Positions 4,100 through 40,597 of a stretch of DNA of 64,000 bases are shown here, in pieces. How positions within the stretch are numbered: the first letter of the stretch is position 1; each line of letters begins with the position of its first letter. Below the pieces are notes generated by a model, which saw nothing but the letters and a program-made list of their open reading frames with translations, had not been told where the DNA came from and ran no database searches. The DNA is taken from the NCBI RefSeq assembly GCF_003334815.1, contig NZ_QOWO01000007.1. One strand, written 5' to 3'. The position numbers and the translations under genes were made by a program. Origin of the DNA: Escherichia coli (GTDB lineage: Bacteria; Pseudomonadota; Gammaproteobacteria; Enterobacterales; Enterobacteriaceae).

Positions 4100-4351
4100 T
4101 TAATCAACCAGATGATATTTTTCTGAAAGCACATGGGCCAGGTGTTTGAACATATTAAACACCGCGGTGCTTTTGGCTGTTGGCAATCCTTGTTCATCTA
4201 AAAAGTAGTCGCCGGTAAATACCAGCACGCCATTACGCTGCGTGACGCCGGTGGCTTCAATCCCTGCGAGCGTATCCTCATGCTCACGAATGATTTTGTT
4301 GGCCTCTTTCAACAGCGTTTCGCGGTCGATGGGTTGTGTCTCTTTGTTCAT
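4100..4351 (-). CDS. yciN: Small protein YciN (DUF2498)
   Basis: 83 aa ORF convergent with sohB, upstream of topA. Confidence 0.8.
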
Positions 4352-4730
4352 TATTTACTCCTTAAACAAGGACATTAGTCTACGCCAGGCATGGCTTGCA
4401 GACAAATATACCACGCTGGTGGCAAGAGCGCCTTACTGGCAACTTTGGATTTTGCATGCTAATAAAGTTGCGTATCGGATTTTATCAGGTACAGTGTGAC
4501 GCTTTCGTCAATCTGGCAATAGATTTGCTTGACATTCGACCAAAATTCCGTCGTGCTATAGCGCCTGTAGGCCAAGACCTGTTAACTCAGTCACCTGAAT
4601 TTTCGTGAACAGAGTCACGACAAGGGGTTGATATCCGCAGAGAGCGAGTCCATATCGGTAACTCGTTGCCAGTGGAAGGTTTATCAACGTGCGACGCATT
4701 CCTGGAAGAATCAAATTAGGTAAGGTGAAT

Positions 4731-35592: not shown

Positions 35593-36150
35593 ATGAGTGA
35601 TGAGGGACTGGCGCCAGGAAAACGCTTGTCGGAAATCCGCCAGCAGCAGGGGCTTTCACAACGTCGTGCCGCCGAACTCTCCGGGCTGACTCACAGTGCT
35701 ATCAGTACGATAGAACAAGATAAAGTCAGCCCTGCCATCAGTACGCTGCAAAAGCTGCTGAAGGTGTATGGTCTGTCACTCTCGGAATTCTTTTCCGAGC
35801 CGGAAAAACCTGATGAGCCGCAGGTCGTCATTAATCAGGACGACTTAATTGAGATGGGTAGTCAGGGTGTGTCAATGAAGCTGGTTCATAACGGTAACCC
35901 GAATCGCACGCTGGCGATGATCTTTGAAACGTACCAGCCGGGCACAACCACTGGGGAAAGAATTAAGCATCAGGGTGAGGAAATAGGCACTGTACTGGAA
36001 GGTGAAATTGTTCTGACGATTAATGGTCAGGATTACCACCTCGTCGCGGGGCAAAGTTATGCCATTAATACCGGCATCCCGCACAGTTTCAGTAATACGT
36101 CGGCAGGTATTTGCCGAATTATCAGCGCCCATACGCCCACCACGTTTTAA
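35593..36150 (+). CDS. puuR: Repressor PuuR (XRE-type HTH + cupin)
   Basis: 185 aa; HTH (LSQRRAAELSGLTHSAISTIEQ) and C-terminal cupin. Confidence 0.92.
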   Translation: MSDEGLAPGKRLSEIRQQQGLSQRRAAELSGLTHSAISTIEQDKVSPAISTLQKLLKVYGLSLSEFFSEPEKPDEPQVVINQDDLIEMGSQGVSMKLVHNGNPNRTLAMIFETYQPGTTTGERIKHQGEEIGTVLEGEIVLTINGQDYHLVAGQSYAINTGIPHSFSNTSAGICRIISAHTPTTF

Positions 36151-36424
36151 TCTTTTTGTTCTGTAAGCCGGGTAAGCGCAATGCGCCCGGCAATCTATAC
36201 ACAAAATCATTCAAGTTGCATCAAGGCGGCAAGTGAGCGAATCCCGATGAGCTTACTCAGGTAAGTGATTCGGGGGAGCGAACGCAGCCAAGGCAGAGGC
36301 GGCTTGAAGGATGAAGTGTATATAAAGAATGTCGCCAGAAATAAACGGGCATACGGCCCGGGGATCTCTGCGCCCTGACGTTCACAAACTGCATATATCT
36401 GATAGACGTGAAACAGGAGTCATA

Positions 36425-37912
36425 ATGAATTTTCATCATCTGGCTTACTGGCAGGATAAAGCGTTAAGTCTCGCCATTGAAAACCGCTTATTTATTAACG
36501 GTGAATATACTGCTGCGGCGGAAAATGAAACCTTTGAAACCGTTGATCCGGTCACCCAGGCACCGCTGGCGAAAATTGCCCGCGGCAAGAGCGTCGATAT
36601 CGACCGTGCGATGAGCGCAGCACGCGGCGTATTTGAACGCGGCGACTGGTCACTCTCTTCTCCGGCTAAACGTAAAGCGGTACTGAATAAACTCGCCGAT
36701 TTAATGGAAGCCCACGCCGAAGAGCTGGCACTGCTGGAAACTCTCGACACCGGCAAACCGATTCGTCACAGTCTGCGTGATGATATTCCCGGCGCGGCGC
36801 GCGCCATTCGCTGGTACGCCGAAGCGATCGACAAAGTGTATGGCGAAGTGGCGACCACCAGTAGCCATGAGCTGGCGATGATCGTGCGTGAACCGGTCGG
36901 CGTGATTGCCGCCATCGTGCCGTGGAACTTCCCGCTGTTGCTGACTTGCTGGAAACTCGGCCCGGCGCTGGCGGCGGGAAACAGCGTGATTCTAAAACCG
37001 TCTGAAAAATCACCGCTCAGTGCGATTCGTCTCGCGGGGCTGGCGAAAGAAGCAGGCTTGCCGGATGGTGTGTTGAACGTGGTGACGGGTTTTGGTCATG
37101 AAGCCGGGCAGGCGCTGTCGCGTCATAACGATATCGACGCCATTGCCTTTACCGGTTCAACCCGTACCGGGAAACAGCTGCTGAAAGATGCGGGCGACAG
37201 CAACATGAAACGCGTCTGGCTGGAAGCGGGCGGCAAAAGCGCCAACATCGTTTTCGCTGACTGCCCGGATTTGCAACAGGCGGCAAGCGCCACCGCAGCA
37301 GGCATTTTCTACAACCAGGGACAGGTTTGCATCGCCGGAACGCGCCTGTTGCTGGAAGAGAGCATCGCCGATGAATTCTTAGCCCTGTTAAAACAGCAGG
37401 CGCAAAACTGGCAGCCGGGCCATCCACTTGATCCCGCAACCACCATGGGCACCTTAATCGACTGCGCCCACGCCGACTCGGTCCATAGCTTTATTCGGGA
37501 AGGCGAAAGCAAAGGGCAACTGTTGTTGGATGGCCGTAACGCCGGGCTGGCTGCCGCCATCGGCCCGACCATCTTTGTGGATGTGGACCCGAATGCGTCC
37601 TTAAGTCGCGAAGAGATTTTCGGTCCGGTGCTGGTGGTCACGCGTTTCACATCAGAAGAACAGGCGCTACAGCTTGCCAACGACAGCCAGTACGGCCTTG
37701 GCGCGGCGGTATGGACGCGCGACCTCTCCCGCGCGCACCGCATGAGCCGACGCCTGAAAGCCGGTTCCGTCTTCGTCAATAACTACAACGACGGCGATAT
37801 GACCGTGCCGTTTGGCGGCTATAAGCAGAGCGGCAACGGTCGCGACAAATCCCTGCATGCCCTTGAAAAATTCACTGAACTGAAAACCATCTGGATAAGC
37901 CTGGAGGCCTGA
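36425..37912 (+). CDS. puuC: Gamma-glutamyl-gamma-aminobutyraldehyde dehydrogenase PuuC
   Basis: 495 aa from MNFHHLAYW; aldehyde dehydrogenase catalytic Cys (GQVCIAGTR) and Glu (LEAGGKSA). Confidence 0.92.
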   Translation: MNFHHLAYWQDKALSLAIENRLFINGEYTAAAENETFETVDPVTQAPLAKIARGKSVDIDRAMSAARGVFERGDWSLSSPAKRKAVLNKLADLMEAHAEELALLETLDTGKPIRHSLRDDIPGAARAIRWYAEAIDKVYGEVATTSSHELAMIVREPVGVIAAIVPWNFPLLLTCWKLGPALAAGNSVILKPSEKSPLSAIRLAGLAKEAGLPDGVLNVVTGFGHEAGQALSRHNDIDAIAFTGSTRTGKQLLKDAGDSNMKRVWLEAGGKSANIVFADCPDLQQAASATAAGIFYNQGQVCIAGTRLLLEESIADEFLALLKQQAQNWQPGHPLDPATTMGTLIDCAHADSVHSFIREGESKGQLLLDGRNAGLAAAIGPTIFVDVDPNASLSREEIFGPVLVVTRFTSEEQALQLANDSQYGLGAAVWTRDLSRAHRMSRRLKAGSVFVNNYNDGDMTVPFGGYKQSGNGRDKSLHALEKFTELKTIWISLEA

Positions 37913-40510: not shown

Positions 40511-40597
40511 TAATGTCTGATGCGCTGCGCTTATCAGGCCTGCAAACGACGTATTGATTATGTATGCCGAATAAAGCATTCACGCCGCATCCGGCAA
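40511..40597. repeat. REP/BIME-type extragenic palindromic elements between puuE and pspF
   Basis: Two REP-like units (GTCTGATGCGCTGCGCTTATCAGGCCTGC and GCCGAATAAAGCATTCACGCCGCATCCGGCAAG) resembling the E. coli REP consensus. Confidence 0.7.

Follow-up and report, generated by a model that had tools for sequence, protein, structure and literature searches.

An ERIC element and two further hairpins in the puuR–puuC spacer of Escherichia coli

ERIC elements, the TA duplication at their target sites, their polymorphism among strains of Escherichia coli and the REP hairpins that follow stop codons are textbook matter. REPs carry a conserved GTAG/CTAC tetranucleotide flanking the palindrome, as known from REP/RAYT biology. 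The ERIC copies of K-12 were reportedly catalogued by Wilson and Sharp in 2006, and the destabilizing Yersinia ERICs described by De Gregorio in 2005 are said to lie at or next to a stop codon, where ribosomes unmask an RNase E site. [quoted passage not shown] 1991; Wilson and Sharp 2006), is characterized in Table 1 of PMC2229807 by a length of ~127 bp, terminal inverted repeats (TIRs) of 7 contiguous bp, TA termini, a target duplication and a transcript that forms a long stem-loop; duplication of a TA is also reported for ERIC elements in PMC3184786. According to the accounts of De Gregorio 2005 given in PMC3184786, PMC2229807 and PMC10969869, co-transcribed ERICs in Yersinia change upstream mRNA levels in an orientation-dependent manner via an RNase E site.

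We describe the spacer between puuR and puuC (36151–36424, 274 nt) in a 64,000-nt stretch of E. coli DNA (contig NZ_QOWO01000007.1, assembly GCF_003334815.1), called the window below and used for all coordinates unless stated otherwise. With high confidence, we read the spacer as a mosaic of three unrelated structured elements, in which an ERIC copy would be a near-neutral passenger and the hairpins on either side of it would act as 3'-end and puuC-leader RNA elements. The spacer's conspicuous structure is real but already explained by a known mobile repeat and a REP-like hairpin; what may be new is confined to a small conserved stem-loop that precedes puuC.

The locus and its ERIC element

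The window holds the E. coli putrescine utilization (puu) cluster, with puuR and puuC both on the plus strand. In the open reading frame list, puuR (35593–36150, +; 185 amino acids, identical to K-12 b1299) ends with the stop codon TAA at 36148–36150 and forms the upstream edge of the spacer, and puuC (36425–37912, +; 495 amino acids) forms its downstream edge with an ATG at 36425. The spacer sequence is identical to positions 1362469–1362742 of K-12 NC_000913.3, and 1108 nt around it matched many E. coli chromosomes at 100% identity, with the flanks annotated as puuR and puuC.

Positions 36196–36322 (+, 127 nt) lie in reverse orientation relative to the published ERIC consensus. [quoted passage not shown] Inverted-repeat search and folding both gave TIRs of 7 bp, TATACAC (36196–36202) and GTGTATA (36316–36322), by which this copy groups with another E. 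coli copy (L003). The left copy of the duplicated TA target forms the first two bases of the element (36196–36197), and the right copy was placed at 36321–36322 by inverted-repeat search and allele comparison. At the centre is a hairpin (36235–36283, +; identified from sequence, fold and consensus alignment), in which CTTAC-tcag-GTAAG (36252–36265) is extended by CCCGA/TCGGG and flanked by direct repeats of GAGCGAA (36235–36241 and 36277–36283); the consensus has the same central layout, GTGAGTGAA..GTGAGCGAA.

As RNA, the element is predicted to fold into one hairpin over its whole length (−51.7 kcal/mol, z = −6.62), against −36.3 kcal/mol for the minus strand; the consensus, a Salmonella copy and the L003 copy show the same strand asymmetry. 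The strand with the more stable RNA is the sense strand of puuR and puuC. Among the 21 differences from the consensus, four stem pairs are altered on both sides and three are broken. In Rfam, the element aligned over its full length (1–129) and in the plus orientation with V_AS5 (RF02818, Vibrio RNA AS5) at 44.8 bits, under the gathering score of 96, and the L003 copy was likewise sub-threshold at 30.8 bits; V_AS5 has the same long-hairpin architecture and is a distant relative, not a member of the same family by the Rfam criterion.

A 135-nt ERIC query matched 2 to 16 places per genome (median, 10) in 5426 of 5426 complete E. coli genomes and is thus a dispersed repeat. An independent copy adjoining a T6SS gene cluster was 85% identical. 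A PuuR-based scan with one genome per species yielded 80 loci, and the window and these loci together contained one other full copy (L003). Like known ERICs, the element lies between genes in transcribed DNA, recurs several times per genome and varies in presence among strains, and we found no essential difference from the described family. Because length, consensus match, TIRs, TA duplication, dispersed copies, fold and presence/absence pattern all agree, 36196–36322 is an ERIC/IRU miniature inverted-repeat transposable element.

The insertion is polymorphic within E. coli. A junction query (30 nt of flank plus 30 nt of ERIC) found the filled allele in 2796 of the ~4280–4390 E. coli genomes with the locus (~65%); ~1500 genomes, about one third of those with the locus, carry the empty allele. 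Of the high-identity copies at the locus, 2791 of 2794 are at least 99% identical, which points to a single insertion event. O157:H7 is shorter by exactly 125 nt at the spacer, and the element is precisely absent from O157:H7, E. coli G12 and E69, Escherichia albertii, Escherichia whittamii, Escherichia sp. E1V33 and Pseudocitrobacter. The empty allele of G12 reads AATC-TA-TAAAG and the filled allele AATC-TA-[36198–36320]-TA-TAAAG, the bracket holding 123 nt; this comparison shows the TA target duplication. At the insertion site, CA stands in O157 and in the sister species; the insertion therefore arose on a background with a C-to-T change, or excision restored that background, and identity bands of the junction query suggest ~485 empty-TA and ~994 empty-CA E. 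coli genomes. ERIC was inserted once, at a TA, in one E. coli lineage.

Outside E. coli, the puuR–puuC spacer lacks the element in all other Escherichia species and in ~30 other genera, and among the 80 loci it occurs only in the K-12-type spacer. A search for the 125-nt ERIC segment at the same site in outgroup species did not find it there; the segment does match other ERIC copies, as a check of its identity. The ERIC-free spacer is 149 nt long in E. albertii, E. whittamii, Escherichia sp. E1V33 and E. coli E69, and 163–164 nt long in Pseudocitrobacter; most Enterobacteriaceae have 124–160 nt between the two genes, and Serratia has 15 nt.

The RNA of the full spacer folds at −98.1 kcal/mol (z = −4.67; 0 of 200 dinucleotide shuffles as good), and the natural 149-nt ERIC-free spacer reaches z = −1.77, with 10 of 200 shuffles equally good; given the z score of ERIC alone, the excess folding of the spacer is almost entirely due to ERIC. 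An earlier inspection of the letters alone (the sequence-only reading) had called the spacer longer and more structured than a terminator plus promoter would require, and rightly so. Its implication of a dedicated structured regulatory spacer is not supported: the mobile ERIC accounts for the additional 125 nt and for almost all of the surplus in folding energy. It had named structure prediction as a check, and this returns a very stable ERIC but an ERIC-free spacer near chance; it had also named poor conservation without a stable structure as grounds for refutation, and the ERIC, for all its stability, is poorly conserved at the locus, being absent from about one third of E. coli and from other species. 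The spacer coordinates and the GC hairpin at 36167–36191 had been given exactly. The 'nested symmetry' singled out in the same reading is the central ERIC hairpin; the motif is genuine, but its end at about 36275 was a few bases short of the real end at 36283, and it is only the centre of a longer imperfect palindrome that spans 36196–36322.

The hairpins after puuR and before puuC

Hairpin 1 (GCCGGGTAAGCGCAATGCGCCCGGC; 36167–36191, +, 25 nt) is a REP-like GC stem-loop that lies 16 nt after the puuR stop codon and folds at −15.6 kcal/mol (shuffles, −7.4 ± 2.4 kcal/mol). No U-tract follows it (tail AATCTATA / AATCCATA), and a plus-strand terminator scan over the spacer did not score it (tail AATCTATACAC). 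A 40-nt BLAST query placed it once per genome in 4303 E. coli genomes. It is identical at 17 of 25 positions to the reverse complement of the REP after puuE (40516–40540), and the differences between the two stems are compensatory (T.A to G.C and A.T to G.C). The GTAA that precedes it (36163–36166) matches GTAG at three of four positions. With REP/PU elements of the Z1-like type it thus shares a GC-rich imperfect palindrome 3' of a stop codon and the GCCKGRTAAGCG..GGC architecture; it differs from them in being single-copy at BLAST sensitivity, in having GTAA for GTAG and in being shorter than the canonical ~35 nt. With intrinsic terminators it shares a GC-rich stem-loop directly after the stop codon, but the Escherichia hairpin has no U-tract, and transcription unit tables show read-through into puuC. 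At BLAST sensitivity, with one copy per genome, the hairpin was not taken for a dispersed repeat, and as a canonical terminator it was rejected, given the missing U-tract; from its sequence features we call it a putative REP-like, leaky 3'-end hairpin.

Conservation of hairpin 1 is limited to Escherichia and Pseudocitrobacter. Other genera have a different hairpin at the same position, GGCCTGAG..CTCAGGCC, with a variable T-rich tail; the post-puuR hairpin scored as an intrinsic terminator in Buttiauxella, where it has a U-tract, but not in Citrobacter or Yokenella.

The puuC leader contains a third hairpin (hairpin 3), 24 nt downstream of ERIC. Its core, CGGGC-ATACG-GCCCG (36346–36360, +), has a 5-bp stem that occurs in at least 12 enterobacterial genera with compensatory changes; alignment of ERIC-free spacers showed that it is conserved as a stem and not as a sequence. 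Most genera have the stem CAGGA/TCCTG, the Citrobacter braakii group has CAGGG/CCCTG, Trabulsiella has CAGGCG/CGCCTG, and Huaxiibacter and Lelliottia share CGGG/CCCG. The sole non-Watson–Crick intermediates in the core are G.T on the plus strand, with no A.C (E. albertii, Escherichia sp. E1V33, Enterobacter sp. CC120223-11, Cedecea sulfonylureivorans and Buttiauxella noackiae), and G.U intermediates on that strand only point to a plus-strand RNA.

A covariance model (R1), built from anchored, trimmed segments, matched the puuC-leader segment (36332–36384, +) at 38 loci when 500 kb was searched, each time with a single match located between puuR and puuC. The counts of hairpin 3 pairs come from an alignment fitted to the structure model, so that the numbers lean towards the structure and the support is inflated: 98.7% of cells were paired against 90.8 ± 1.1% in shuffles (0 of 500 as high) and 44–64% in slid-partner controls; the covariation score was 0.229 against 0.103 in shuffles (0 of 500); and two of the five pairs had double changes (AU19/GC7/GU4/CG1 and AU18/CG3). 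On an unfitted MAFFT alignment, RNAalifold recovered three pairs only, because the arms were mis-registered. Hairpin 3 covaries. Covariation analysis had been another check proposed in the sequence-only reading, and the support was thus found in a stem-loop that it had not mentioned.

Around the core, an outer helix (CAGA/TCTG in E. coli) extends the stem-loop to ~36327–36383 (−24.9 kcal/mol); variants CAGA/TCTG, CGGA/TCTG, GATGC/GCATC and GGTGC/GCATC are found in many genera, and the helix is not uniformly conserved. Downstream of the core are a conserved single-stranded tail identified in the alignments, GGGATCTCTGCGCCCTGA (GGGCAnnnTGCAGCCTGA in other genera; 36361–36378, +), of which a related motif is kept in Klebsiella and Raoultella, and, also from alignment, a segment (36395–36419, +) with the box ATATCTGATAGA (36395–36406; TTATCTGATTGA in other genera) and the Shine–Dalgarno sequence AGGAG of puuC (36415–36419). 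A search of Rfam over 36323–36424 at E ≤ 10 returned none beyond chance-level matches at the start codon. Hairpin 3 probably acts at the RNA level, in the processing or stability of the puuC message. In an attractive version of this proposal, transcription would begin immediately behind the −10-like CATAAA/TATAAA at 36321–36326, and hairpin 3 may form the stem-loop at the 5' end of the transcript.

Several other readings of the leader were discarded. For sigma-54 and sigma-70 promoters in the conserved GGGGCAnnnTGCAGCC block, the spacings were unfit by eye, GG-N10-GC occurred only with poor flanks, and E. coli lacks the −35-like TTAACA found in other genera. An anti-Shine–Dalgarno role of the 3' arm of hairpin 3 was dropped because the arm covaries with its 5' partner and not with the Shine–Dalgarno sequence. 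Similarity of the leader to the puuA–puuD control region was 7.5 (chance, 8.0 ± 0.9), which gave no ground for a PuuR operator. For an N-terminally extended PuuC starting at the in-frame ATG at 36329, the reading frame is open in no group but the near-identical clade of Escherichia and Pseudocitrobacter.

Transcription and competing readings

The plus-strand starts listed in genome-wide data for K-12 are confined to 1359076, 1359392 and 1359691 (old coordinates), which lie upstream of or within puuD (PMC3923258, Table S6; PMC3415461, file 2), the next listed start beyond puu being that of pspA/pspF, and neither data set has a start within the spacer (PMC3923258 and PMC3415461). The transcription units reported are puuD;puuR;puuC;puuB;puuE and puuR;puuC;puuB;puuE (Cho 2014, PMC3923258; Kim 2012, PMC3415461). 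Starts on the puuD side and units that run through puuR into puuCBE make the spacer an internal part of a polycistronic mRNA, and we infer that the ERIC belongs to the same transcript, in which it would fold with hairpin 1 on one side and the puuC leader on the other. A consensus promoter scan of the spacer gave a single match, which overlaps the start codon. Maciag 2011 (PMC3141248) reports an EsigmaS-dependent in vitro start for puuCBE and rpoS dependence in vivo; in the rpoS mutant of Cho 2014 (PMC3923258), puuC goes up, not down. Stationary-phase wild-type array signals (PMC3923258, Table S7), which are not strictly comparable across genes, are ~9.3 log2 for puuR and ~6.8 log2 for puuC, a drop that is compatible with attenuation across the spacer and not attributable to one element. 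The 3'-end tables of Adams 2021 contain no entry for puuR or puuC.

On the mosaic reading, hairpin 1 would take the place of the post-puuR hairpin of other genera, which is terminator-like in some of them; since it has no U-tract, it would most likely serve the puuDR part of the message as a leaky 3' end or as a barrier to exonucleases. The ERIC would be transcribed inside the mRNA on its stronger-hairpin strand (−52 kcal/mol) and, by analogy with Yersinia, may alter the processing or decay of the puuDR half relative to the puuCBE half, for which it could serve as an exonuclease barrier or an endonuclease entry site. Like the co-transcribed Yersinia ERICs, it lies between two co-directional co-transcribed genes and is predicted to fold as RNA; it differs from them in starting 45 nt after the stop codon, behind another hairpin. 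Downstream of it follows the native puuC leader, with the stem-loop at 36346–36360 kept by compensatory substitutions across Enterobacteriaceae. Because the ERIC is missing, between otherwise identical flanks, from about one third of E. coli and from all sister species, it is most likely a near-neutral passenger here, with at most a modest effect on mRNA processing. Its frequency of ~65% could reflect selection rather than drift.

A conventional terminator and promoter would divide the spacer differently: hairpin 1 would end the puuDR transcript, and puuCBE would be expressed mainly from a sigma-S promoter of its own within the spacer. The ERIC would then be inert filler upstream of the promoter, or the donor of part of it (the junction TATAAA, 36321–36326), and the extended hairpin-3 stem-loop (36327–36383) a 5'-terminal protective stem-loop of the puuCBE mRNA. 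We hold this possible, if on the unlikely side. It draws on the EsigmaS-dependent start and rpoS dependence of Maciag 2011, on the Buttiauxella hairpin that scores as a terminator, on a −10-like stretch (CATAAA/TATAAA/CTTAAA/TATTAA) ahead of hairpin 3 in most genera and on the G.U pairs of hairpin 3, which in its core as in its outer helices occur on the plus strand only; it conflicts with the Escherichia hairpin 1, which lacks a U-tract and was not scored, with zero starts in the spacer in both start-site sets, with a promoter match only over the start codon and with the rise of puuC in the rpoS mutant. ERIC did not create the TATAAA, since the G12 allele, which has no ERIC, shares its T. If the start of Maciag 2011 is downstream of ERIC, part of puuC expression proceeds without the element; if it is inside ERIC, the element is a promoter donor and not a passenger. 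That the whole spacer is instead one dedicated cis-regulatory RNA for puuC (a riboswitch, attenuator or thermosensor) fits the significant folding of the full spacer but is largely refuted: 125 of the 274 nt are a polymorphic transposon that is not conserved, folding without it is near chance, zero Rfam families reach threshold, Serratia has only 15 nt between the genes, only the 5-bp hairpin and short boxes are conserved, and the PuuR-controlled puuA–puuD region shows no similarity. It was rejected on the z score of −1.77 without ERIC and the lack of conservation of the ERIC part.

The remaining alternatives give the ERIC a function. The sense hairpin may have been co-opted as a strain-specific post-transcriptional switch, an RNase E/III entry site or an exonuclease barrier that uncouples PuuR from PuuC, PuuB and PuuE, the filled allele having spread thereby. 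Its position inside the puuDRCBE and puuRCBE units, in the orientation with the more stable RNA, the orientation-dependent effects of co-transcribed Yersinia ERICs on upstream mRNA (in the secondary accounts cited above), the majority status of the filled allele (2796 genomes) and the drop from puuR to puuC in the K-12 stationary-phase array all agree with this. We nonetheless think it improbable, as ~1500 E. coli genomes, all other Escherichia species and other genera function without the ERIC, the array drop between signals that are not strictly comparable is equally explicable by hairpin 1 or hairpin 3, and 65% from a single old insertion fits drift and clonal structure. A compound proposal, that hairpin 3 and its tail (36361–36378) are an undescribed cis-acting puuC-leader RNA element of most Enterobacteriaceae, such as a signal for stability or processing at the 5' end or between cistrons, and that in K-12-type E. 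coli the ERIC 24 nt upstream was co-opted to retune the PuuR:PuuCBE ratio, is in our judgement a long shot. Hardly credible is an independently transcribed small RNA gene in the manner of the Vibrio relative V_AS5: the copy aligns with RF02818 over its full length and in the plus orientation, but its 44.8 bits fall far short of the gathering score (96), a further E. coli ERIC reaches 30.8, the two start-site sets (PMC3923258 and PMC3415461) list zero starts in the spacer, scans found promoter and terminator consensus absent around the element, and puuR and puuC are missing from the 3'-end tables of Adams 2021.

Strain differences at the locus

The main value of the mosaic reading is correct annotation: the apparent large regulatory RNA of an operon much studied in K-12 is a known mobile repeat plus a REP-like hairpin. 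K-12 is unrepresentative of E. coli here, about a third of the species, including O157:H7, having the 149-nt spacer, so that K-12 data on the coupling of puuR and puuC expression may not transfer. Were co-option and the leader element both true, putrescine catabolism would differ at the strain level between ERIC-filled (K-12, ~65%) and ERIC-empty (O157:H7) strains. Ahead of puuC, the conserved stem-loop of 5 bp offers a small candidate for a signal that governs the processing or stability of mRNA in the putrescine pathway. How ERIC duplicates its TA target in E. coli is cleanly illustrated by the naturally empty allele, AATC-TA-TAAAG, which also provides a template for scarless deletion.

Repeats in and around the puuR-puuC spacer

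Escherichia coli alleles of the puuR-puuC spacer (36151-36424) that lack the 127-nt miniature transposon ERIC (36196-36322) are of two types, AATC-TA-TAAAG (G12, L086, 386-534) and AATC-CA-TAAAG (O157:H7, L001, 859-1007). AATC-TA-TAAAG is the exact target or excision site of ERIC, and sister species such as E. albertii share the AATC-CA-TAAAG form. Identity bands suggest that roughly 485 E. coli genomes carry the TA type and 994 the CA type. A further ERIC copy, 85% identical to both the consensus and the puu copy, was located in E. coli isolate 538 (L003, 1501-1627), 22 nt 3' of a DUF4123 gene within a type VI secretion vgr cluster. The two copies have identical orientation relative to their co-directional neighbors, a hint, from these two cases only, of an orientation preference.

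Other perfect palindromes rich in GC (e.g., GCGCCGGCGGA..TCCGCCGGCGC) have independently lengthened the spacer to 238-320 nt in some Enterobacter-like genomes as well as in Klebsiella and Raoultella (loci L012, L019-L021, L025, L026, L031, L037, L039, and L048). Hairpin-forming repeats seem to land repeatedly in this spacer. As a pair, puuR and puuC need none of the spacer hairpins; in Serratia spp. (L051-L060, L063, and L072), the puuR-puuC distance is only 15 to 16 nt. In many cases from Serratia, Rahnella, and Erwinia, puuC is absent after the PuuR homologue.

Directly downstream of puuE, a REP (Z1-like) palindrome, GTCTGATGCGCTGCGCTTATCAGGC, is accompanied by a second REP arm (..CGCCGCATCCGGC; 40516-40595 in total), and additional classic REP arms occur in the window at about 28545, 56550, and 59693. 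The copy examined of the K-12 RefSeq record (NC_000913.3 5000-6000, L085) contained no repeat_region features where an annotated RIP/REP element would be expected. A result of "nothing annotated" for intergenic regions of this record is therefore uninformative.

The puuC leader

The puuC leader contains a plus-strand stem-loop with a conserved tail (36346-36384; covariance-model hit, 36332-36384). Compensatory substitutions keep the 5-bp stem across at least 12 enterobacterial genera, with G.U intermediates on the plus strand only, and no Rfam family matched the stem-loop (36346-36384). An in-frame plus-strand ATG at 36329, listed mechanically as the start of an open reading frame (36329..37912), would give puuC 32 extra codons (36329-36424); it was rejected as a conserved PuuC extension because only the near-identical Escherichia/Pseudocitrobacter clade keeps this frame open.

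An ERIC-filled allele of E. coli 2017.17.03CC (L087, about 918-1694) carries IS1 18 nt 5' of the puuC start codon, at a site corresponding to 36402-36410 (9-bp duplication, ATAGACGTG), which cuts puuC off from its own conserved leader. Published expression data for the operon are at odds: puuCBE was reported as sigma-S dependent (Maciag 2011, PMC3141248), whereas stationary-phase puuD and puuC signals were higher in an rpoS mutant than in the wild type (Cho 2014, Table S7, b1298-b1302; PMC3923258).

Taxonomic distribution of puu loci

Pseudocitrobacter faecalis and P. vendiensis (L010 and L011) share 99% PuuR and 95 to 96% PuuC identity with Escherichia, and the 3' 100 nt of their spacers are nearly identical to those of Escherichia; in comparison, Citrobacter and Enterobacter PuuC reach only about 78 to 82%. 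These identities suggest either that the puu cluster was transferred horizontally or that the relationship is closer than expected. Two further records, retrieved as L007 and L028, are likely misbinned or contaminated: the puu locus of the metagenome-assembled genome "Citrobacter sp. HRGM_Genome_0066" is of the E. coli type (100% PuuR identity; same spacer sequence as in O157), and that of the "Chryseobacterium sp. 18061" assembly is of the Citrobacter type.
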